From: Dehalococcoidia bacterium
GTDB lineage: Bacteria > Chloroflexota > Dehalococcoidia > Lucifugimonadales > Australimonadaceae
Direction: 5' to 3'
Assembly: GCA_965206315.1 (NCBI GenBank)
Contig: OZ242210.1
Coordinates: forward strand, 1,730,822 to 1,794,821
Length of the DNA stretch: 64,000 nucleotides
Part shown: one piece after another, positions 1 through 16,547 of the stretch
Position numbering within the stretch: the first letter of the stretch is position 1
Layout: each line of letters begins with the position of its first letter
Notes under the pieces: generated by a model
Database searches by the model: none
Seen by the model: the letters and a program-made list of their open reading frames with translations, nothing else
What the model was told of the DNA's origin: nothing
Position numbers and translations under genes: made by a program

Positions 1-165
1 ATGGACCCGTGCGGCCATGACCTGGCGTTCCATGAGGTGGCGTCGGAGTTCCGGCGCCATTTCCCCTGGGCCATAGCGGTGGGCGTCCAACTCTTGGTGG
101 ATTGCCGACAACTCGTTCAGCGACTCGCGAATGGCAGGCGTGAGCCTGAAGTTCGTGTAAAGCAT
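1..165 (-). CDS. hypothetical protein, N-terminal ~55 codons only (gene continues past the left edge)
   Basis: Reverse strand from ATG at 165 reads MLYTNFRLTPAIRESLNELSAIHQELDAHRYGPGEMAPELRRHLMERQVMAARVH. It is open to position 1 and has a purine-rich stretch upstream. No recognisable motif. Confidence 0.25.
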   Translation of the reverse strand, partial: MLYTNFRLTPAIRESLNELSAIHQELDAHRYGPGEMAPELRRHLMERQVMAARVH

Positions 166-301
166 GCACTGTCTTTCCTTCCGCTTGGCGGCGTGGCTGC
201 CCTCAGCCAGTGTAGCGCCCGCGCGAGCACCGTCCAAGGAGTGTATGGCAGGGCGTGGCGAGGCTAGCGGTGCCGTACTAGGCTGCCTATAATCCGCGTC
301 A

Positions 302-511
302 ATGGCGGAGATACAGTCAGACCCTAGCGACTTGATCTCCCTACGGGAGGCAGCTGAACTCTCCGGCTATTCCCTGTCCCACCTGAGGCACCTGGTTGCC
401 ATTGGCAACCTGTGGGGCAGGAAGATTGGCCGCAACTACATCACGTCGCGTGCGGCAGTTGAGAAGTACAGGCAGTCCCCTCCTCCCCCTGGTCGGCCAA
501 AGGAGGGTTGA
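302..511 (+). CDS. small helix-turn-helix DNA-binding protein (excisionase/MerR-like HTH); candidate controller of the downstream module
   Basis: 69 aa. LISLREAAELSGYSLSHLRHLVAIGNLWGRKIGRNYIT looks like an HTH_17-type motif. Its stop codon lies inside the -35 box of the next promoter. Confidence 0.65.
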   Translation: MAEIQSDPSDLISLREAAELSGYSLSHLRHLVAIGNLWGRKIGRNYITSRAAVEKYRQSPPPPGRPKEG

Positions 512-544
512 CAATATAAGCGATACCGCTTATATTACTGTCAA
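508..544 (+). promoter_or_regulatory. sigma70-like promoter TTGACA-17nt-TATATT with an embedded perfect palindrome (candidate operator)
   Basis: TTGACA at 508-513 and TATATT at 531-536. ATATAAGCG (514-522) and CGCTTATAT (527-535) are perfect inverted repeats. The outer TTGACA/TGTCAA (539-544) pair is also inverted. Confidence 0.5.
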
Positions 545-573
545 GACAGCTCATGCAGACAGGGGGATGCATC

Positions 574-1050
574 ATGCCAAAGTACTATGTGACGTACTCC
601 GCCAAGGGAGCTAGGCATAGGGTTGAGGTCGAGGCTCCGACCAGCACCAAGGCTGTGCGTATCGCGCGAGAGATGGCCCGCGCTGAAGGACTCGGACGTG
701 TGATGCTCAACTTGGTTGAGCAAGAAGACCCTCACCTGCTATCTGACGTTGATCAAGACAAGGTAGACAGAGAGATCGCTGAGCAGTTGGTGGCGACGCG
801 TGGCCGGGCCCTTACGGTGGAGGAGATAAACGTCTCGATATGGGAAATTATTGGCGAGGTACCTCTTCGGGCCGTTGAAAGGGACGGGCACATTCTCTTG
901 GATGACGGCGTGCACGAAACTGCTGATGGGGACGACCTCTCGTGGAACGAACTGTTCATCCTCGTCTACGAATGGGCGGTTTTCACCGGAGAGACCTCTG
1001 AGTCCTTTGAGGGATTCATTGAACTCTACGAGATGCCTATCTGGGAGTAG
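574..1050 (+). CDS. hypothetical acidic protein, no recognised domain
   Basis: ORF 553..1050. ATG at 574 (MPKYYVTYS) has AGGGGGA about 7 nt upstream. It lies 5 nt from the next gene and has island-like lower G+C. Confidence 0.55.
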   Translation: MPKYYVTYSAKGARHRVEVEAPTSTKAVRIAREMARAEGLGRVMLNLVEQEDPHLLSDVDQDKVDREIAEQLVATRGRALTVEEINVSIWEIIGEVPLRAVERDGHILLDDGVHETADGDDLSWNELFILVYEWAVFTGETSESFEGFIELYEMPIWE

Positions 1051-1055
1051 CATCC

Positions 1056-2099
1056 ATGCCTTCTAAACGCTCGACACGCAAATCCAAAGCCGGCACTGCC
1101 GACCTGAAAGAGACAGTGGTGCCGTATGTGGCCTCTCCACCATCTGTGCCTGTCCGCAGCCGGACCCTGGTGACCGGCCTCCGCAAGATGAAGGAGGTCA
1201 CTTGGGTTCACTACACCAAGTTCCTGAAGGACTACGAGACGGTATTGGTTGAAGGCAAGGATATCCGTCTCGAAGGGGGCCGAAGAATCAAAACGTTCGG
1301 ACCGGAGCAGGACGAGGAGCAGCAGACGACGGTCTGGTCGTTTCCCGACCGCGGGCGTTGGGCGACACATAAGGCGAGTTACAGGGGTAACTGGTCGCCG
1401 TGGGTGCCAAGGAACCTGATTCTCAAATACAGCGAACCAGGCGACACGGTGCTTGACCAGATGGTCGGCGGCGGCACAACACTTGTGGAGTGCAAGCTGC
1501 TGGGGCGCCGTGGGATAGGCGTGGACATCAGCCGTAATTCGCTCATGCTTGCCATGGACAGGTTGAACTTTCACCTACCACTCCCCGAGGATGGTGCGCC
1601 TGACGAACTGCCTCCGGAGATAAAGCTGTTTGAGGGAGATGCACGAAGCCTCAATGCGATCCCGTCAGACAGCGTTGACCTGATAGCGACTCACCCGCCG
1701 TATGCCAACATTATCCCGTACTCCAAGGCCGCGCCTATCGAGGGTGATCTGTCGCAGGTGCACACACTCAACGAGTTCTTTGATGGAATGGCAGTGGTCG
1801 CTGCTGAGAGCCTCCGTGTGCTCAAGCCTGGCGGCTACGCAGGCATCCTGATAGGAGATACGCACAAGCACGCACACTATGTCCCAATGGCATATCGCAC
1901 GCTGGAAGCGTTTCTACGGGCGGGGTTCATCCTCAAAGAGGACGTCATCAAACTTCAGCACAACGTGGAGACTGCCCGCACGCGCTGGCGCCCTTGGTTC
2001 CTGACGAACTTCCTCCAGACGATGCATGAGCACCTGTTCATCTTCCGGAAGCTGCGCCCTGAGGAGGATGAACGGAAGTTCGCGGCGAGCAGGTTCTAG
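1056..2099 (+). CDS. DNA amino-methyltransferase (N6-adenine/N4-cytosine class)
   Basis: AdoMet motif VLDQMVGGGTTLVEC precedes the catalytic DLIATHPPYANII (D/S-PPY variant). The HKASYRGNWSP segment resembles the HPxxFP segment of PF01555-type MTases. Confidence 0.8.
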   Translation: MPSKRSTRKSKAGTADLKETVVPYVASPPSVPVRSRTLVTGLRKMKEVTWVHYTKFLKDYETVLVEGKDIRLEGGRRIKTFGPEQDEEQQTTVWSFPDRGRWATHKASYRGNWSPWVPRNLILKYSEPGDTVLDQMVGGGTTLVECKLLGRRGIGVDISRNSLMLAMDRLNFHLPLPEDGAPDELPPEIKLFEGDARSLNAIPSDSVDLIATHPPYANIIPYSKAAPIEGDLSQVHTLNEFFDGMAVVAAESLRVLKPGGYAGILIGDTHKHAHYVPMAYRTLEAFLRAGFILKEDVIKLQHNVETARTRWRPWFLTNFLQTMHEHLFIFRKLRPEEDERKFAASRF

Positions 2100-2140
2100 G
2101 TAGACACGTTGAATGAAGCCCTCTAGAATCGCATGCCGTA

Positions 2141-3172
2141 ATGGCGGAGATTCGAATTATAGACAATGCTAGTCGGCCTGCTGGCGACGAGCTTAGGGAG
2201 AGCTTGGAGTGGGCTTCCCATGTTCGCATTGCAACTGCATTTGCGAAAGGGTCAGGTGTATCTAGGCTTCTTGACTCGTTCAGACGGGTTCTTTCCGACG
2301 GTGGAGAGTTGAGAGTAGTCTACGGCCTAGATTTCCATATTACCGATCCCCAGGCGATTGAACAGTTCAGAAGATTGGCTGATGACTATCCCAGCACGGT
2401 CATCCATCGCGCATACTCAGAGTGGGGTTTGGCCTTAAGTCAAGCATTCCACCCCAAGCTCTACATTTGCACCGGCGCTACAGGGGATGCCCAGGTACTG
2501 ACTGGATCCTCTAACCTGACACAGGGCGGACTGTGGGACAATTTCGAAGTGAACACGGTCATTACCGGGACATCAGACGATCCTGTAATCCTTCACGCAT
2601 ACAGCATTTTTGATCGGGCCTTTACTCATGAACATTGCTTTGTGCCCACCCAAGAATATGTCGATGCGTACAGAGAACTATACAGAAGAGCAGCAGCGGT
2701 TCCGCTTACAGCTAGCCCCCCTGAACGGCTGATGGCAGCTTACGAAGAACTGAAAGGAATCGCGGATAGGCGCACACTCGGTGATTGCCCTAGGCACGCA
2801 GGCCAACAGAATAGCGGGAATAGGGAACACTTAGATGGGCAGATGATGCTGTTGCCTATGAACCAAGCTGGCTTAGGTAGGCATAAGTGCTCGTACTGCG
2901 CGTATGAGCAGGCTTACTGGCAAGCCATAGACGACATACAATCCTCCCTAACTCAAGGCTGGACTACTGATATACCGCGTTCGCAGGACTGGTCTCCAAA
3001 TATTGATTGCCCTAGGCACGCAGGCCAACAGAATAGCGGGAATAGGGAACACTTAGATGGGCAGATGATGCTGTTGCCTATGAACCAAGCTGGGAGAGGC
3101 AGGCACAAATGTCCCTATTGCGCCTACGAGCGTGGCTACTGGCAGGCCATAGACGACCTACGAAACATCTAA
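2141..3172 (+). CDS. PLD-superfamily (single HKD motif) nuclease with duplicated C-terminal Cys/His module
   Basis: HPKLYICTGATGDAQVLTGSSNLTQGG matches HxK(x4)D(x6)GSxN. The C-terminus carries two 74-aa repeats, each CPRH...HKCxYCAYE. Confidence 0.75.
   Translation: MAEIRIIDNASRPAGDELRESLEWASHVRIATAFAKGSGVSRLLDSFRRVLSDGGELRVVYGLDFHITDPQAIEQFRRLADDYPSTVIHRAYSEWGLALSQAFHPKLYICTGATGDAQVLTGSSNLTQGGLWDNFEVNTVITGTSDDPVILHAYSIFDRAFTHEHCFVPTQEYVDAYRELYRRAAAVPLTASPPERLMAAYEELKGIADRRTLGDCPRHAGQQNSGNREHLDGQMMLLPMNQAGLGRHKCSYCAYEQAYWQAIDDIQSSLTQGWTTDIPRSQDWSPNIDCPRHAGQQNSGNREHLDGQMMLLPMNQAGRGRHKCPYCAYERGYWQAIDDLRNI
2783..3160 (+). repeat. intragenic tandem duplication, period 222 nt (74 codons)
   Basis: 2783-2871 and 3005-3093 are identical over about 89 nt. 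The remaining ~65 nt of each unit diverge while keeping CxYCAYExxYWQAIDD. Confidence 0.85.
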
Positions 3173-3186
3173 ACAAGCCTAGCCCC

Positions 3187-6153
<2,967 letters not shown>

Positions 6154-6254
6154 GGGGCTAGATGGTATCACCTGCCGCTGGGCTGGGGGATAGGCTCCGC
6201 CCGTGGTGAGCCTTGTTGTCCGCTCATGGTGAGCCTGTCGAACCACGCCCCTTT

Positions 6255-6339
6255 CCGTCATTCCTGCGGAGGCAGGAATCTCGCAGCCCACCTCGCCCTC
6301 AGGGAGAGGTCGCCGCACGGAGGGCGGCGGGTGAGGGTG
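6255..6339. repeat. REP-like hairpin pair (type 1 GTCATTCCTGCGGAGGCAGGAAT plus type 3 CCCTCAGGGAGAGG...GGCGGGTGAGGG)
   Basis: The same two hairpin motifs recur in many intergenic regions of this window. Confidence 0.8.
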
Positions 6340-6365
6340 GTACACTGCCAAGGAGAGACGAACCG

Positions 6366-6575
6366 ATGACAACGCAGATGCCGGCAATAGAAGAGCGCGT
6401 GAGCCGCCTTGAGGGCGCCTACGAGCAAGTGAATGAGCGGCTTGGCGACCTCACCCAGGCCATTGCGAGCCTCCGCTCAGAGATGAACAGCCGGTTCAAC
6501 ACGGTGTACGCCTTTCTCGCCACGTTGGTCGCGGCGAACCTCGGCACGCTCATCGCGATTCTGGTCAAGGACTAG
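6366..6575 (+). CDS. small coiled-coil protein with C-terminal transmembrane anchor
   Basis: MTTQMPAIEERVSRLEGAYEQVNERLGDLTQAIASLRSEMNSRF followed by the hydrophobic AFLATLVAANLGTLIAILV. Start taken at the internal ATG because the upstream ORF part is REP sequence. Confidence 0.5.
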   Translation: MTTQMPAIEERVSRLEGAYEQVNERLGDLTQAIASLRSEMNSRFNTVYAFLATLVAANLGTLIAILVKD

Positions 6576-11073: not shown

Positions 11074-12873
11074 GTGATAGCATGGTTCGCTATGGCTGAC
11101 GGGTCAACAAAGCAGGCAAGTGGTCGACCTCCCAACGCCACCCTTGAGGTGCACGAGATCCAGGCGGATGACTTTGCACGTCGATTCTCGTTGCGAGGGA
11201 GGAATCTCATGTGGTTGCTCGGTGCAGGCGCATCAGCCTCGGCTGGAGTTCCGACTGCTCAAGACATGGTTTGGGATTTCAAGCAACAACTATTCATTAG
11301 TCAACGGAGAATATCGCCAAGCACAGTCGCAGACCTGTCCAATCAGTCCGTCCGTCAGCAGCTGCAGGCGCACATTGACTCTCTCGGAAGGCTGCCTTTG
11401 CTTGGTTCTACCGATGAGTACGCGGCGCTGTTCGAGGAGGTGTACCCAGCCGAGGCAGACCGTAGAGCGTATTTGAATGCCAAGGTGGCGGGTTCAAAGC
11501 CGTCCTACGGGCACCTCGCCCTTGCCACGCTGATGCGGGCCAGCCTGGTTCCAGTTGTGTGGACTACTAATTTTGATGCACTTGTTGCCGACGCATGTGC
11601 CAAGGTATACGACACCACTGGCGCCTTGACACTCGCAGACCTCGATTCGCCCGACTTGGCAAAGCAGGCCATTCATGACGAGCGATGGCCAGTGGAAGTC
11701 AAACTGCACGGAGACTTTAGGTCGCGGAGGCTCAAGAACACTACGGATGAGCTTCGCTATCAAGACGTGAGACTGAGGAACACACTCGTTGATTCGTGTC
11801 GAAGGTTTGGGTTGATCGTGGTGGGATATAGCGGACGTGATGACTCCATTATGGATACCCTCTCCGAGGCTGTGCGTTCCCCCGATGCTTTCCCTAGCGG
11901 GTTGTTTTGGCTGCATCGCGGCGATGGGCCTCCTGTACCTAGAGTCATGGACTTATTGGCCCAAGCAACCAGTTCGGGCATTGAAGCGGGATTGGTACGA
12001 ATCGCGAATTTCGATGAAGCACTACGTGACTTGGTTCGTCTACTTGAAGACTTAGACACGACCACTCTGGATTCCTTGGCCAAGGAACGCCGTCCTTGGA
12101 GCAGTGCACCGATACCAAGCGGTCGACTTGGCTGGCCTGTTGTGCGTCTCAACGCCCTCAATGTGGTTCAGGTACCGAGTGTATGCCGGCGGGTGGTTTG
12201 TGAGATCGGAGGAACAGCTGCAGTGCGTGAGGCGGCAACTAAAGCTGGAGTCGAGATACTCGCAGTACGTTCGGTGACTGGGGTGCTGGCCTTTGGATCA
12301 GATTCGGACATGCGCGCGGCATTTGGGCCTTATGACATTTCTGAGTACGACATCTACACTCTGGACCCGAAGAAGCAGAGGCACGATTCAACTGAGCGAG
12401 GCCTACTGCGCGAGGCTCTCACACGGGCTATTTCGCGCTATCGTAGCCTCAGCGCAACTCATCGGCGCAGGGCGGACTTGCTTGTGCCGTGTGACCCTAC
12501 AGATCAAGCCTGGCTGCCCTTGAAACAGCTGGTGGGCGAACTTGATGGAACAGTTAATCGCCAGCCGGAATTGCGATGGCAAGAGGGCATAAGTATCCGA
12601 TTAGATTGGGCCGACGACCGGCTGTGGTTGCTGTTCGAACCGAGGACGGTGTTCTCCGGCATCAATGCCGAGAACAGGTTGGCAGCAACGGACTTTGCCC
12701 GCGAACGGTCGGTCAAGCGGTACAACAGGCAACTGAATAGCCTCTTGGACTTCTGGTCCAGATGGCTTTCGCAAGAGGGGAGCGCACTCAGAGCACTAGA
12801 CGTCGGCGATGGCATTGATGCTGTCTTCAGCATCTCTCCCATCACGGGCTTCTCACGGAGGGCGGGGGCTTGA
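11074..12873 (+). CDS. SIR2-APAZ protein (SIR2_2-type NADase domain fused to an Argonaute-associated APAZ region)
   Basis: MWLLGAGASASAGVP (nt 11221 onward), WTTNFDALV (Asn), VKLHGDF (His) and VVGYSGRDDSI, followed by ~300 aa non-SIR2 C-terminal region. GTG 11074 or ATG 11092 start. TGA overlaps the start of the pAgo gene. Confidence 0.85.
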   Translation: MIAWFAMADGSTKQASGRPPNATLEVHEIQADDFARRFSLRGRNLMWLLGAGASASAGVPTAQDMVWDFKQQLFISQRRISPSTVADLSNQSVRQQLQAHIDSLGRLPLLGSTDEYAALFEEVYPAEADRRAYLNAKVAGSKPSYGHLALATLMRASLVPVVWTTNFDALVADACAKVYDTTGALTLADLDSPDLAKQAIHDERWPVEVKLHGDFRSRRLKNTTDELRYQDVRLRNTLVDSCRRFGLIVVGYSGRDDSIMDTLSEAVRSPDAFPSGLFWLHRGDGPPVPRVMDLLAQATSSGIEAGLVRIANFDEALRDLVRLLEDLDTTTLDSLAKERRPWSSAPIPSGRLGWPVVRLNALNVVQVPSVCRRVVCEIGGTAAVREAATKAGVEILAVRSVTGVLAFGSDSDMRAAFGPYDISEYDIYTLDPKKQRHDSTERGLLREALTRAISRYRSLSATHRRRADLLVPCDPTDQAWLPLKQLVGELDGTVNRQPELRWQEGISIRLDWADDRLWLLFEPRTVFSGINAENRLAATDFARERSVKRYNRQLNSLLDFWSRWLSQEGSALRALDVGDGIDAVFSISPITGFSRRAGA

Positions 12874-14291
12874 CAAGTCAGATTGCTCCACACATATGGC
12901 TACCTGAACCGCAACTGGCATTCCATGCCGACCGCACGTCCGATCGCGACATCCACCCTCTGCGCGGCCTTCAGAAGTTCGGTCCTTACTCAGCCGGGAT
13001 GGTGCCTGATCCAATCAGGGTAGCTACCTTGTCACCGGCAGGAGAAGGTGGCCAACTTCACACTTTTCTGAAGAGCCTAAACTCGGCGCACATCCCTAAA
13101 GAGCGCAGAGACTATCTCCCGGAATGGCAGGGTTTTCGGCCTGTTTTTGGCCTCCAAATTACAGCAGCGGAGGAGAGTTGCCATATAGAACTAGACTCGT
13201 CCGTGGATGCTGACATGCGAGCTTCACTGAATCCTCACGTTGTGCTCGCAGACCGGTTAGTCAGGGCTATTCAGCGTGTGCAGGCACTCCGTCCCAAGTT
13301 CGATGTGCTTCTGATTTACTTACCCGGGCGTTGGACTCCAGGCTACACCGGTGGCCCCGACGAAGATTTCGACCTCCATGATCATCTGAAGGCTACTACG
13401 GCAGCCCTTGGATTGCCGGTTCAGCTGGTACGAGAAGACAGTGCCTTAGCCTACAACTGCCAAGCCAGTGTCATGTGGCGCTTGGGTATGGCCCTGTACA
13501 CCAAGGCTGGCGGCATCCCATGGAAACTGGCGGAGACTAACCCTGATACAGCGTATATCGGCATCTCCTACGCTTTGCGCTCAATCGCATCAGAAAGCCC
13601 ACGGTTCATTACTTGTTGCAGCCAAGTCTTCGATGCTGATGGTTCGGGCTTGGAATTTGTTGCGTATGATGCTCACGAGTTCGAAGTCCATCAAGATAAC
13701 CCGTTTTTGTCCCGTGCTGAGATGTTTCGCGTGATGACTCGTTCAATGGAACTCTACAGACGGCGTCATGCCGGAATGTCGCCTCGACGAGTTGTGGTAC
13801 ACAAATCCACGGAATTTAAGCCAGAAGAAGTCGATGGTTGCATGGAGGCCCTACACTTGTGTGAAGCCGTTGACTTGGTACAAGTTGTTGAAGACGTGGG
13901 GTGGCGCGGCGTACGGATTGACGAGAATCCAGGCTCCACTAGGGGCAACCCTGCTGCATTTCCAGTTTCGCGTGGAACGGCCATGGGCCTTTCACCACGC
14001 GATGTCCTGGTATGGACACATGGAGATGTAAGGGGTGTCAGCAGCAGAGGTTCCTACTTCAAAGGAGCCCGAAGCACTCCGACTCCCCTCCGGCTGGTGC
14101 GCCACGCCGGCCATGGGCCGTGGGACGACAACGTCCGCGCGATCTTGGGGCTCAGCAAGATGAACTGGAACAACGATTCCCTATACGACACGTTGCCCGT
14201 CACTATGGCCTATGCGAAGGTGCTGGCCCGCGTAGTCAAGCGCATGCCCAGCCTCACGCGCACGCCGTATCAGTTCAGATTCTTCATGTAG
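12870..14291 (+). CDS. short prokaryotic Argonaute (MID-PIWI only, catalytic tetrad absent)
   Basis: 473 aa. MID-like DLHDHLKATTAALGLPVQLV and PIWI signature LYTKAGGIPWKL. YIGISYA and RVVVHKST sit where active Agos carry catalytic Asp. No N/PAZ length. TTG start overlaps the upstream TGA (cTTGA). Confidence 0.85.
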   Translation: MTSQIAPHIWLPEPQLAFHADRTSDRDIHPLRGLQKFGPYSAGMVPDPIRVATLSPAGEGGQLHTFLKSLNSAHIPKERRDYLPEWQGFRPVFGLQITAAEESCHIELDSSVDADMRASLNPHVVLADRLVRAIQRVQALRPKFDVLLIYLPGRWTPGYTGGPDEDFDLHDHLKATTAALGLPVQLVREDSALAYNCQASVMWRLGMALYTKAGGIPWKLAETNPDTAYIGISYALRSIASESPRFITCCSQVFDADGSGLEFVAYDAHEFEVHQDNPFLSRAEMFRVMTRSMELYRRRHAGMSPRRVVVHKSTEFKPEEVDGCMEALHLCEAVDLVQVVEDVGWRGVRIDENPGSTRGNPAAFPVSRGTAMGLSPRDVLVWTHGDVRGVSSRGSYFKGARSTPTPLRLVRHAGHGPWDDNVRAILGLSKMNWNNDSLYDTLPVTMAYAKVLARVVKRMPSLTRTPYQFRFFM

Positions 14292-14649: not shown

Positions 14650-15951
14650 ATGTCGGCTGATACCTTCCGGGACCCGGCATTCTCGGCGAACCGGGATGAA
14701 CCTGTACACCGGTGGGTTCCTTGGATCGCGGGGTTCTCAAGACAATTCATCCAAGACGCGCTCAACTCATACACCAACGGCCACTCTCAGGCTGTGTTGG
14801 ACCCCTTCGCTGGTGTAGCCACGACCTTGATAGAGGCCGATCTTGCTGGTCATGACGCTGTAGGCTTCGAGATTAACCCTTACGCTGCTTTCGCTGCCCA
14901 ACTCAAGCTGAGCGCCCACCGCCTGTCCGTGGAGGACTTGCGCTCCGTTGTCATCGACCTTTATGAGCACGCTCTGACCGTGGAAACCAACGGAGTGATG
15001 CCCATGTCTGTGCCACCCCCAGGATTCCGCACACGGTTGCCCTTCTACAGCCCGGAGGTAGAGCGCAAGGTACTGCTTATGCTGGACTTCGCCAGCCGTC
15101 AGTCCGACGACCAGGCGGCGGACCTGCTCAAGCTGGCTTTCGCATCGACGATGGTGGAGTATTCCAACTACTCGTACGAACCGAGCCTCGGGACGCGGAA
15201 CGCGGCTGGCCGGGCTGGCGTAGATGATTTCCCGGTAGCCCTGCGAATCGCCCGCAAGCTCACTCAAATGGCCACTGACGCGAAGTGGTATCGTGAGCAC
15301 CGCGAGCGAGCGCAGCGCGATGATGGACAGGTTCACCTTCAATCCTTCTTCGACGGATACGAACTGATTGGGCGGCAGAGCATCGATTTGATCGTGACCT
15401 CACCGCCCTACGCGAACAACTACCACTACAATCGCAATACTCGCCCGCACCTATACTGGCTTGGCTTCTGTAAATCGCCGGATGACATGAAGAGTCTTGA
15501 AGAACAGAACTTCGGCACCTACTGGCAGCGAGCGCGGGAGTTGGAGTGTGTAGAACTGAACCCCATCATCGCTGGCAGGGGCATTAGGGAGACCTTGGCT
15601 CAGATACGTCGACAGAATCCTGACCGTGGAATCTATGGTGGTCAAGGGTGGGCCAACTATGTCACCACGTACCTGAACGATTGCGTTCGGTTCATGGACG
15701 GGGTGAAGTGGTGCCTCCGTCCTGGCGGTACTGCCCTTGTGGTTATTGGGAACAGTATCGTGCAGGGTGTTCATGTACCCACTGACAGGTACTTAGCTGA
15801 GATTGCTGCTCAACATGACCTTGAAGTGGTAGAGATTCACACACCACGTCCCACCCGCGTTGGCAATAGCATAACGAACTCTAGTGTCCGTCGGGGCACT
15901 GCCGGACATACTAAGCTTTATGAGTCGGTGGTAGAGTTGAGACAGCCATGA
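14650..15951 (+). CDS. DNA amino-methyltransferase, alpha-class order (motif I - long variable region - SPPY)
   Basis: VLDPFAGVATTLIEA near the N-terminus and DLIVTSPPYANNYHY about 200 aa later. GGAGG lies ~10 nt upstream. The stop overlaps the start of the nuclease gene. Confidence 0.85.
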   Translation: MSADTFRDPAFSANRDEPVHRWVPWIAGFSRQFIQDALNSYTNGHSQAVLDPFAGVATTLIEADLAGHDAVGFEINPYAAFAAQLKLSAHRLSVEDLRSVVIDLYEHALTVETNGVMPMSVPPPGFRTRLPFYSPEVERKVLLMLDFASRQSDDQAADLLKLAFASTMVEYSNYSYEPSLGTRNAAGRAGVDDFPVALRIARKLTQMATDAKWYREHRERAQRDDGQVHLQSFFDGYELIGRQSIDLIVTSPPYANNYHYNRNTRPHLYWLGFCKSPDDMKSLEEQNFGTYWQRARELECVELNPIIAGRGIRETLAQIRRQNPDRGIYGGQGWANYVTTYLNDCVRFMDGVKWCLRPGGTALVVIGNSIVQGVHVPTDRYLAEIAAQHDLEVVEIHTPRPTRVGNSITNSSVRRGTAGHTKLYESVVELRQP

Positions 15952-16547
15952 GCGAGCTTTACGATCCACTCACCTGGCAGAACCTCATGGCAGGGCTCGT
16001 TGTTCGCTTCGAGCAACAGCCCCGCGTTAGTTTCGCAGAGATCGGCAACGCGGAAGGACCGGGAGTGTACGCGTTGTTCTACGTGGGAGGACATGCGGCA
16101 TACTCTCCGATCTCCGGCACGCTGCAGCCCATTTACGTAGGGAAGGCAGTTCCCGAAGGCACACGGAAGGGGAGCTTAGAAGGAGCGGGACAACACGCCC
16201 TAAGAGGGAGGCTGCGCAATCACCGACGATCCATTGACGCGGCCGTGAATCTTGAAACGGACGATTTCCTGTGCCGCTTCCTGGCAGTCGTTCCCGTGTG
16301 GATAACGCTGGCAGAGCGGTTCCTGATAGACCATTACCGTCCGATCTGGAACACGGGGATAGATGGATTCGGCAACAACCCGCAAGGCAGAAACCGAGTG
16401 ACCGGGGACAAGAGCTGGTGGGACACGCTGCACCCTGGCCGTGAATGGGCAATCAAGCGCACACCGAAGGGCACCGAGGGGGAGGCGCTGGCTTTGGTCG
16501 CTCAGTTCTTCAGCGAGGGAGACGAGGCCTCTCCCTCCCTCAACTGA
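15948..16547 (+). CDS. Eco29kI-family GIY-YIG restriction endonuclease
   Basis: GPGVYALFYVGG...PIYVGKAVPEG (GIY-YIG core), RLRNHRRSI, and YRPIWNTGIDGFGNNPQGRNR...WWDTLHPGREWA as recalled for the RE_Eco29kI family. ATGA overlap with the MTase gene. Confidence 0.75.
   Translation: MSELYDPLTWQNLMAGLVVRFEQQPRVSFAEIGNAEGPGVYALFYVGGHAAYSPISGTLQPIYVGKAVPEGTRKGSLEGAGQHALRGRLRNHRRSIDAAVNLETDDFLCRFLAVVPVWITLAERFLIDHYRPIWNTGIDGFGNNPQGRNRVTGDKSWWDTLHPGREWAIKRTPKGTEGEALALVAQFFSEGDEASPSLN

Follow-up and report, generated by a model that had tools for sequence, protein, structure and literature searches.

We describe a four-gene cassette near the start of a 64,000-nucleotide stretch of contig OZ242210.1 from a Dehalococcoidia bacterium (the whole stretch is called the window below). 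The cassette encodes, in order, a small helix-turn-helix (HTH) protein, a 158 amino acid protein, a DNA methyltransferase, and a nuclease of the PLD superfamily (Table 1). It is likely, in our judgment, to be a self-contained and horizontally mobile restriction-modification system built of two units, a methyltransferase-PLD core and a controller. Three features are new: the PLD nuclease carries a previously undescribed module in tandem, the controller is of a non-Xre kind and has a clear operator, and the partner protein is rare and without detectable fold relatives. A first-pass annotation of this DNA had proposed a controller-regulated restriction module that might differ from a textbook Type II system, and the proposal is supported by the conserved methyltransferase-PLD pair, by the alignment of the HKD residues, and by the predicted PLD fold.

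The four genes lie on one strand with intergenic gaps of 62, 5, and 41 nucleotides (nt), and no intrinsic terminator was found between them on the plus strand. The tight spacing and the lower G+C content, both remarked on in the first-pass annotation, hold up: G+C is 51–59% over positions 250–3250 compared with 68–70% in the flanking DNA, and G+C at third codon positions is 50–71% in the cassette genes compared with 94% in the adjacent uvrA. Because both measures fall well below those of the flanks and uvrA, the cassette is foreign DNA that was horizontally acquired. On the left it is bordered by the N-terminus of a divergent Fic-domain gene (window 1–165, minus strand), whose start, MLYTNFRLTPAIRESLNEL, matches a 397 amino acid Fic protein. 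On the right it is bordered by uvrA (3187–6387, minus strand). The same Fic-domain gene flanks the cassette in L006 (we refer to related loci by L numbers and to related proteins by P numbers). For the public sequencing runs that hold the locus the library type is unrecorded, and they look like metagenome assemblies of low depth; two related runs carry the label sponge metagenome.

The core of the cassette is the METHYLTRANSFERASE-nuclease pair, in which the methyltransferase gene stands directly upstream of the PLD gene. This adjacency is found in five loci (the window, L001, L002, L006, and L007), and the flanks differ by locus: gyrB with an insertion sequence element, gyrA, Fic, or PaREP1 with uvrA. 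Full-length nuclease homologues are 58–83% identical, those of the pair loci 59–83%, methyltransferase orthologues adjoining a PLD gene are 78–88% identical, and the gap between the two genes ranges from 11 to 84 nt across the pair loci. Since the two genes move together amid differing flanks, we take them to be a cognate mobile restriction-modification pair. A low-coverage (9x) sibling of L002 was also seen (L003, 4261–5916), in which the HTH and methyltransferase genes are frameshifted and the PLD gene is intact. The frameshifts are probably long-read assembly errors rather than the mark of a methyltransferase-less nuclease.

The methyltransferase matches the Pfam family N6_N4_Mtase (PF01555, 6.8e-22) in two permuted pieces and the PADLOC model MTase_II (PDLC03376, 5.3e-65). 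The family match and the motifs confirm what had been read by eye as GGGTT...HPPY: motif I (VGGGTT, amino acids ~137–143) lies ahead of motif IV (THPPY, amino acids ~211–215). Because of this order, and because the structure 2zie in the Protein Data Bank (PDB) aligns to the protein in swapped order, the enzyme is predicted to be a circular permutation of a beta-class N6_N4 amino-methyltransferase, acting on N6 of adenine or N4 of cytosine. The first position of motif IV is an unusual His; HPPY is kept in a Fusobacterium homologue. In the plasmid and phage collections the homologues are only distant (at most 44% identity), the closest in the annotated collections being a Fusobacterium vincentii record at 43.5% identity, which bears no annotation and whose open reading frames (ORFs) we read directly. 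The GGGAG Shine-Dalgarno sequence of the methyltransferase lies inside the end of the 158 amino acid protein gene.

For the last gene, the first-pass annotation had proposed a single-HKD PLD nuclease and had made this depend on whether the HKD residues align with those of active PLD nucleases. They do, both with BfiI and with SauUSI. Pfam matches are to PLDc_2 (6.5e-6; its 26.5 bits fall slightly short of the 27-bit cut-off) and to the PLD domain of RE_NgoFVII (1.5e-3). An AlphaFold2 (AF2) model built from 59 sequences has a predicted local distance difference test (pLDDT) score above 90 over amino acids 1–210. A Foldseek search against the PDB gives SauUSI (2.6e-11), NucT (2.4e-7), BfiI (6.1e-7), the NgoAVII R-protein (2.6e-6), and Nuc (3.5e-6). 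H104, K106, G122-S123-S124-N125, N134, and E136 do not vary among 23 homologues, and in a profile search the HKD motif aligns with BfiI residues 103–142, so that H104 and K106 correspond to BfiI H105 and K107. The model and the invariant residues together point to a single-HKD PLD-superfamily nuclease fold with conserved catalytic residues. BfiI is a homodimer with one active site and cleaves DNA independently of metal; its H105 is the nucleophile of that single site, which lies at the dimer interface (PMC2853115). By analogy, the nuclease of the cassette would be a homodimer with one metal-independent active site, working through a phospho-histidine intermediate.

The controller unit begins with the HTH protein, which is basic (isoelectric point [pI] 9.7). 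Its profile matches are to HTH_17 (1.1e-3), the TIGR01764 excisionase model (1.6e-4), the PADLOC model mad1 (5.4e-4), and PHROG excisionase families (~1e-3); a PDB sequence search with this protein found nothing useful. Orthologues 82–93% identical are present in L002, L003, L006, L008, L009, and L010, and the gene keeps a fixed position directly upstream of methyltransferase operons. The HTH of L020 and a remote copy in L039 were identified by reading the ORFs and placed in the alignment by eye. The protein is most likely of the MerR/excisionase (HTH_17) type and a putative repressor, which sets it apart from the classical C proteins. A TATAAT element lies only 8 nt before the ATG of its gene, which implies that its mRNA would be leaderless or near-leaderless. 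The arrangement cTATAATccgcg-N3-ATG is kept in L006, L008, L009, and L010, and L002 has TATACT at the same place.

The strong promoter with an embedded palindrome that the first-pass annotation reported is indeed present; it follows the HTH gene, with the HTH stop codon sitting within its -35 hexamer. The palindrome is unique in the 64-kb window, and a match with at most three mismatches appeared in only 6 of 100 shuffles. No further copy at that threshold was found in the 64-kb window, including near the HTH and nuclease promoters. Seven loci keep the same plan: TTGACA, a 9-nt arm, 4 nt, and a second 9-nt arm with the -10 element inside it. Complementarity of the arms is 9/9 in the window, L009, L020, and L039, 8/9 in L008, 7/9 in L006, and 6/9 in L002. 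In L039, where the sequence is ATATATGCG-atag-CGCATATAT, full complementarity is kept through a compensatory A>T / T>A change, which supports the palindrome being a dimer-binding operator of the HTH protein. Because this putative operator extends over the 17-bp spacer and the -10 element, repression is likely: the HTH protein most likely acts as a repressor at the promoter of the 158 amino acid protein and the methyltransferase, and not as an activator of the nuclease. Some points weigh against assigning this type and role to the HTH protein. Every HTH family match falls below its curated cut-off, and MerR-type regulators bound between the -35 and -10 elements can activate. The spacer also counts here in part: at the optimal 17 bp, it favors repression without proving it.

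A second promoter-like site precedes the nuclease gene, which has no Shine-Dalgarno sequence there. Both hexamers of this site are kept in L006 and in L002 (as TACAAT), though the spacer of L002 has diverged. In L001 and L007 the site is missing, and the methyltransferase and nuclease genes are instead separated by an 11-nt gap with GGAG.

The 158 amino acid protein is the least familiar part of the controller unit. The mechanical ORF begins at 553; we chose the ATG at 574, which has GGGGGA 8 nt before it, because homologues also begin with MPxYY. The first-pass annotation had called it an acidic protein of unknown function. Searches of Pfam, NCBIfam, PADLOC, and PHROGs indeed give no match, but the acidity is confined to the C-domain (amino acids 61–151, pI 4.05; 28 Asp or Glu in 108 amino acids), and the N-domain (amino acids 3–50, beta-beta-alpha-beta) is basic, with a pI of 10. 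The family is tiny, with five close relatives and 19 representatives among 1.84 billion proteins. Structure prediction, which had been recommended for this protein, gave a confident AF2 model (23 sequences, mean pLDDT 85.6), but the model found no relatives at E<=1e-3 in a fold search of the PDB and BFVD. The N-domain has a weak likeness (E 0.08–0.4, TM 0.5–0.7, ~50 amino acids) to T7 Gp2 and YkzG, which are small RNA-polymerase binders; we treat this as a lead and not as a finding.

The HTH gene, the operator, and the 158 amino acid protein gene form a unit that precedes different partners. In the window, L006, and L002 (where the protein lacks its N-domain), the unit stands before the permuted methyltransferase and PLD genes. 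In L008 it stands before the permuted methyltransferase with DndB-like and PDDEXK_11 genes, and in L039, where the 158 amino acid protein is 31% identical, before a beta-class methyltransferase with DUF6996/6997. Because it is kept with the HTH gene and operator before these differing methyltransferase and nuclease sets, the protein belongs with the controller and not with the nuclease. Our best guess is that it is a partner of the controller, either a co-regulator of the HTH protein or an establishment-phase factor. Its absence from L020, which has the HTH gene, operator, and methyltransferase, and from the HTH-less L001 and L007 tells against an indispensable role, and it is therefore not essential to the methyltransferase-nuclease pair. 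It is tempting to suppose instead that the protein is a transient nuclease inhibitor, a DNA mimic or direct binder made in an early burst to protect the naive host. Its gene and the methyltransferase gene lie behind one strong, repressible promoter, the C-domain is strongly acidic, and the nuclease has its own promoter where the HTH and 158 amino acid proteins are present and is coupled to the methyltransferase where both are absent. On balance we think this rather unlikely. The protein accompanies three unrelated nuclease types; fold searches with it found nothing like Ocr, ArdA, or any other mimic; L020 does without it; and the only structural lead, a weak one, is to RNA-polymerase binders.

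The nuclease C-terminus, flagged as unusual in the first-pass annotation, is indeed so: it is a tandem duplication, which that annotation missed. It consists of two copies of a 54 amino acid CxxH...GRHKCPYCAY module, encoded by 158-nt direct repeats (2782–2939 and 3004–3161). The first 90 nt are identical between the repeats and the remainder has diverged, a pattern that indicates recent gene conversion; the two copies within an orthologue are less alike than those of the window. A Logan contig of run X4 joins position 2781 directly to 3004, omitting exactly one 222-nt unit, and reflects either a one-module allele or assembler collapse.

The module has no matching model in Pfam or NCBIfam, and its sole family match is to phrog_3941 ("unknown function"; 4.2e-21, two stretches in the nuclease). 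From 26 aligned modules we derived the consensus DCPxHaG...LPxNQsGxGRHKCPYCAYExGY, in which C3, H6, Q29, G31, G33, R34, H35, C37, Y39, C40, and A41 are invariant. The constancy of the four putative metal ligands (C3, H6, C37, and C40) suggests a four-ligand CxxH...CxxC zinc site.

The same module is found on other scaffolds. Nucleases of the MutH/Sau3AI-like and PDDEXK_11 types carry it at the C-terminus, and several of the MutH/Sau3AI-like ones are also fused to a beta-class N6_N4 methyltransferase. McrB-like AAA_5 proteins carry it at the N-terminus, as in L041, where the order is D12 methyltransferase, module::McrB, McrC. P0046 has four tandem copies, and more than 300 proteins of 55–90 amino acids are stand-alone modules. 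In two unrelated operons (L013/L014 and L021) the genes for a D12 methyltransferase and a 155 amino acid PDDEXK_11 nuclease are separated by that of a stand-alone module; the minimal PDDEXK_11 nucleases paired or fused with the module are 141–156 amino acids long. Most of the bacterial loci examined have a methyltransferase next to the module gene or fused to it, and in L012 and L016 it is 1–1.6 kb away. A scan of metagenome contigs with the module profile found only 6 loci, and the 64-kb window holds no other module copies. Because the same module serves other nuclease and motor scaffolds next to or near methyltransferases, the most economical reading, and one we consider somewhat more probable than its alternatives combined, is that it binds the unmethylated target of the neighboring methyltransferase.

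Several observations fit this reading poorly. One trypsin-like (Trypsin_2) protease carries the module at its N-terminus, and phage contigs have it far from any methyltransferase; neither case is well explained by recognition of a DNA target. In addition, AF2 left the modules unfolded (pLDDT 40–70), so the structure prediction that had been advised for the nuclease C-terminus could not be followed by a fold search of the modules, and the proposed zinc and DNA binding therefore rest on the sequence pattern and gene context. The module might instead be a protein-protein adaptor or oligomerization element of the effector-associated-domain kind. It is N-terminal on AAA_5/nSTAND3-like NTPases as well as on the protease, it is found on several unrelated nuclease types, and stand-alone copies are abundant. 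Such a distribution resembles that of the adaptor domains of conflict systems. We nevertheless regard an adaptor as unlikely. McrB homologues carry a variable DNA-binding domain at the very position that the module occupies, and the operon there encodes a methyltransferase, module::McrB, and McrC. Its fusion to, and fission from, the minimal PDDEXK_11 nuclease resembles the behavior of a specificity subunit. Two or four tandem repeats with an invariant polar/basic motif, NQxGxGRHK, are typical of DNA-binding zinc modules, and the window contains no second module-bearing partner for an adaptor to join.

Among the phage-borne versions we observed modules with one Cys-containing repeat and one Cys-less repeat. 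One phage-like IMG/VR contig (L023, 789–6134), in which the module adjoins DUF6996/6997, encodes in sequence a D12 methyltransferase, DpnII, DUF6996/6997, and a 90 amino acid module-like protein, followed by a 167 amino acid ORF, a DndB-like protein, and an N6_N4 methyltransferase.

What sequence might the modules read? D12 (Dam-class) methyltransferases adjoin the module in four contexts, and the L023 cluster carries a DpnII-family nuclease (4e-101). In the Fusobacterium vincentii record the methyltransferase homologue directly follows an Mrr_cat gene, with a D12 methyltransferase and DpnII two genes upstream. The PLD paralogues of the nuclease end in the winged-helix reader of DpnI, and their family showed Dam-dependent toxicity (PMC11037411). 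GATC is depleted in the window (207 observed compared with 329 expected, ratio 0.63), where it is the second most depleted of the 256 tetranucleotides after CTAG, and it is depleted in all of the related loci L001–L016 (ratios 0.42–0.81). On these circumstantial grounds a GATC-containing site is our leading guess for the target, held with somewhat less than even confidence. Two facts count against it: depletion of GATC is common in bacteria, and MutH-like domains also occur in the MvaI/BcnI enzymes, which recognize CCWGG/CCSGG. The latter sites, considered as a target in view of weak MvaI_BcnI matches of the MutH-like proteins, were set aside, as their ratios of 0.80 and 1.00 show no notable depletion in the window.

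About 35 further homologues of the nuclease share only the PLD domain (~65% identity, amino acids 1–211) and end in a DpnI_C winged helix (wH). The C-terminus of these PLD-wH paralogues contains PF17726 (P0012 and P0032), which is absent from the window nuclease, and matches DpnI (4esj, 4.5e-10). In L011 (from a Dehalococcoidia metagenome-assembled genome), L004, and L016 the PLD-wH gene is convergent with a methyltransferase::MutH::module gene, and in L011 and L016 this arrangement lies beside uvrA. At the uvrA site of L008, HTH, 158 amino acid protein, and methyltransferase genes are present and DndB-like and PDDEXK_11 genes replace the PLD gene; L007 has at that site a methyltransferase and a PLD nuclease with two modules. 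The spot next to uvrA appears to be a defense hotspot where alternative cassettes replace one another, and a single PLD chassis is combined there in some cases with a wH methyl-reader and in others with tandem modules and a methyltransferase. As a separate observation, L011 (8899–10584, minus strand) and L012 (4265–5968) encode single proteins of 561–567 amino acids in which the module is joined to a beta-class N6_N4 methyltransferase and a MutH/Sau3AI-like nuclease, and these adjoin a PLD-wH gene expected to read Gm6ATC. Self-restriction would be expected in such genomes unless the methyltransferase makes a different mark, e.g., N4-methylcytosine.

The wH paralogues also bring up the reading in which the window nuclease is itself modification-dependent (Type IV) and the methyltransferase is an orphan or makes a different protective mark. 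The identity of the PLD domains, a weak match to the PADLOC model mREase_IV (7e-6), and the fact that the top structural match, SauUSI, is a Type IV enzyme all lean that way. We find it improbable, since the wH reader is exactly the part that the modules replace and the methyltransferase-PLD pairing is kept in five differing contexts. In addition, the closely spaced genes of L001 and L007, with their Shine-Dalgarno sequence, suggest co-translation, and a methyltransferase adjacent or fused to most of the other module-bearing nuclease and motor genes examined is the signature of methylation-sensitive systems.

Finally, the HTH protein could be an excisionase, with the block an integrative-element edge and the palindrome a recombination or excision site, as the excisionase models among its best matches and the foreign composition of the block might suggest; this is very improbable, because a scan of the window found no tRNA, integrase, or bounding direct repeats around the block (a prophage edge was rejected on the same grounds), the palindrome keeps its place between conserved -35 and -10 elements in seven loci whatever the flanks, and the HTH gene keeps its place directly upstream of methyltransferase operons.

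A working model of the restriction-modification cassette can be put forward from these data. The methyltransferase would mark the host DNA. Two N-terminal PLD domains would dimerize to form one active site containing the two H104 residues and cut through a phospho-histidine, as in BfiI, with the C-terminal modules reading the unmethylated target site, possibly one containing GATC. In a naive cell the promoter downstream of the HTH gene would fire freely, giving a burst of methyltransferase together with the 158 amino acid protein. The HTH protein, made from its leaderless transcript, would bind the 9-4-9 palindrome as a dimer and later throttle this promoter, leaving basal expression by read-through from the HTH promoter. 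The nuclease would be made slowly from its own weaker, near-leaderless promoter.

The cassette shares parts with several known systems. With BfiI, a Type IIS enzyme, it shares an N-terminal single-HKD PLD domain, a separate C-terminal domain, a similar length (343 compared with 358 amino acids), and a methyltransferase alongside. The C-terminal reader of BfiI is a B3-like domain, whereas the window nuclease has two ~54 amino acid modules with no detected similarity to B3; sequence identity is ~17%, and the matches to 2c1l and 4rct span only ~175–185 columns, about the length of the PLD domain, a B3-like C-terminal domain being absent. The R-proteins of NgoAVII and CglI, which are ATP-dependent and work with an N-protein, likewise have an N-terminal PLD domain (4rct, 2.6e-6) and are encoded in restriction-modification operons. 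Unlike those, the window cassette lacks a B3 domain and a gene for a helicase/ATPase N-protein, as only four genes lie between the Fic gene and uvrA. The catalytic domain is most closely related to proteins of the PLD-wH kind, to which Aba4572I and CbaI belong; those from Chloroflexota are ~65% identical to it and are found at the same uvrA hotspot in related genomes. In the window protein their DpnI winged-helix reader of N6-methyladenine is replaced by the tandem modules together with a cognate methyltransferase, which implies cutting that is methylation-sensitive rather than methylation-dependent. The Aba4572I/CbaI family is regarded as Type IV and Gm6ATC-dependent; it showed Dam-dependent toxicity, and its proteins could not be purified (PMC11037411).

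LlaJI-type, McrBC-like systems and other readers exchanged among nuclease scaffolds are comparable as well: here one small domain, the module, is joined to MutH-like, PDDEXK_11, PLD, and McrB scaffolds beside a methyltransferase. The distribution of the module parallels that of the B3, wH, SRA, and PUA readers, which are shuffled between scaffolds (PMC11037411), but the module is none of the reader families described: neither Pfam nor NCBIfam has a model for it, and PHROG 3941 is the sole named family that it matches. A search of defense-system models, another check proposed in the first-pass annotation, supplied the MTase_II match given above, and the few matches to multigene systems were weak and confined to single genes. 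MADS, the methylation-associated defense system with the set mad1–mad8 that includes ATPase and nuclease components, was rejected, as only mad1 and mad2 (7.9e-14, far weaker than MTase_II) were matched and no other mad genes are present in the cassette. DISARM was rejected as well: the only match was DrmC (7.5e-6), the neighbors of the PLD gene are the methyltransferase and uvrA, and genes for the DrmA helicase and the DUF1998 protein DrmB are absent.

The first-pass annotation likened the HTH protein to the C proteins, and some of the resemblance is real: as with C.PvuII, C.AhdI, and C.Esp1396I, a small HTH protein is encoded in the cassette, with a palindromic operator, leaderless transcripts, and a presumed ordering of expression. 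C.Esp1396I is described as acting at the M promoter as well (PMC2691842). The likeness is not borne out in detail. The window protein belongs with HTH_17/MerR/excisionase and not with Xre/HTH_3; no C-box lies upstream of its gene, and the single operator is in the promoter of the next gene, on the methyltransferase side. Its gene is predicted not to be co-transcribed with the nuclease gene, and a second conserved protein, that of 158 amino acids, accompanies it.

Taken jointly, these features raise a broader possibility, which we offer only tentatively: the module is a portable reader of unmethylated sites, the PLD chassis alternates between readers, phages use the module as a decoy, and the controller represents a non-Xre class. 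If so, an undescribed reader, possibly of GATC type, would be in use on at least four scaffolds (PLD, MutH-like, PDDEXK_11, and McrB). The methylation-dependent (wH) and methylation-sensitive (modules with methyltransferase) PLD forms would be a DpnI/DpnII-like alternation built on one nuclease. The phage phrog_3941 proteins would be reader-derived decoys or site-maskers, and the HTH-operator-158 amino acid protein unit would be a second, non-Xre controller class for restriction-modification systems. To our knowledge, PLD-family restriction enzymes are few, and the characterized ones (BfiI, BmrI, NgoAVII/CglI, and SauUSI) have each informed mechanism or the engineering of cutters. Joining a PLD nuclease to another kind of small tandem reader would be a new domain combination. 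If the module proves sequence-specific, it would be a compact 54 amino acid DNA-recognition unit, naturally joined to at least four catalytic or motor scaffolds. The controller cassette would offer a clear, testable operator distinct from those of classical C proteins, and the uvrA hotspot would be a place where methylation-dependent and methylation-sensitive versions of a nuclease alternate in sponge-associated or environmental Chloroflexota.

Table 1. Genes, promoter elements, and protein domains of the cassette (window coordinates)
Feature	Position	Strand	Length	Basis and remarks
-10 element of HTH gene, TATAAT	288..293	+		8 nt before ATG; read from sequence
HTH gene	302-511	+	69 aa	ORF list
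Near-consensus sigma-70 promoter, TTGACA-17-TATATT	508-536	+		11/12 consensus match
Putative operator, perfect 9-4-9 palindrome, ATATAAGCG-atac-CGCTTATAT	514-535	.		Fills spacer, overlaps -10
158 aa protein gene (unknown protein)	574-1050	+	158 aa	ORF list
Methyltransferase gene	1056-2099	+	347 aa	ORF list
Internal promoter-like site, TAGACA-17-TAGAAT	2101..2129	+		10/12 match; 11 nt before nuclease ATG, without Shine-Dalgarno
PLD nuclease gene	2141-3172	+	343 aa	ORF list
PLD catalytic domain, aa 1-210	2141..2770	+		AF2, Foldseek, invariant residues
Module copy 1, aa 214-267, DCPRH...NQAGLGRHKCSYCAYE	2780..2941	+		Repeat, phrog_3941; putative zinc-binding DNA reader
Module copy 2, aa 288-341	3002..3163	+		Repeat of copy 1

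Two further sets of genes were seen elsewhere in the window. A second low-G+C island (11074–14291, plus strand) encodes a 599 amino acid SIR2_2 protein (PF13289, 1.1e-13) followed by a 473 amino acid Piwi protein (PF02171, 7e-6; 25.9 bits, below the 28.9-bit cut-off), and the two look like a short prokaryotic Argonaute/SIR2 defense pair. Further along (14650–16547, plus strand), a 433 amino acid N6_N4 methyltransferase is followed by a 199 amino acid endonuclease of the Eco29kI family (PF09517, 1.9e-47). By these family matches the latter two genes are another restriction-modification pair, making the first 17 kb of the window rich in predicted defense genes.

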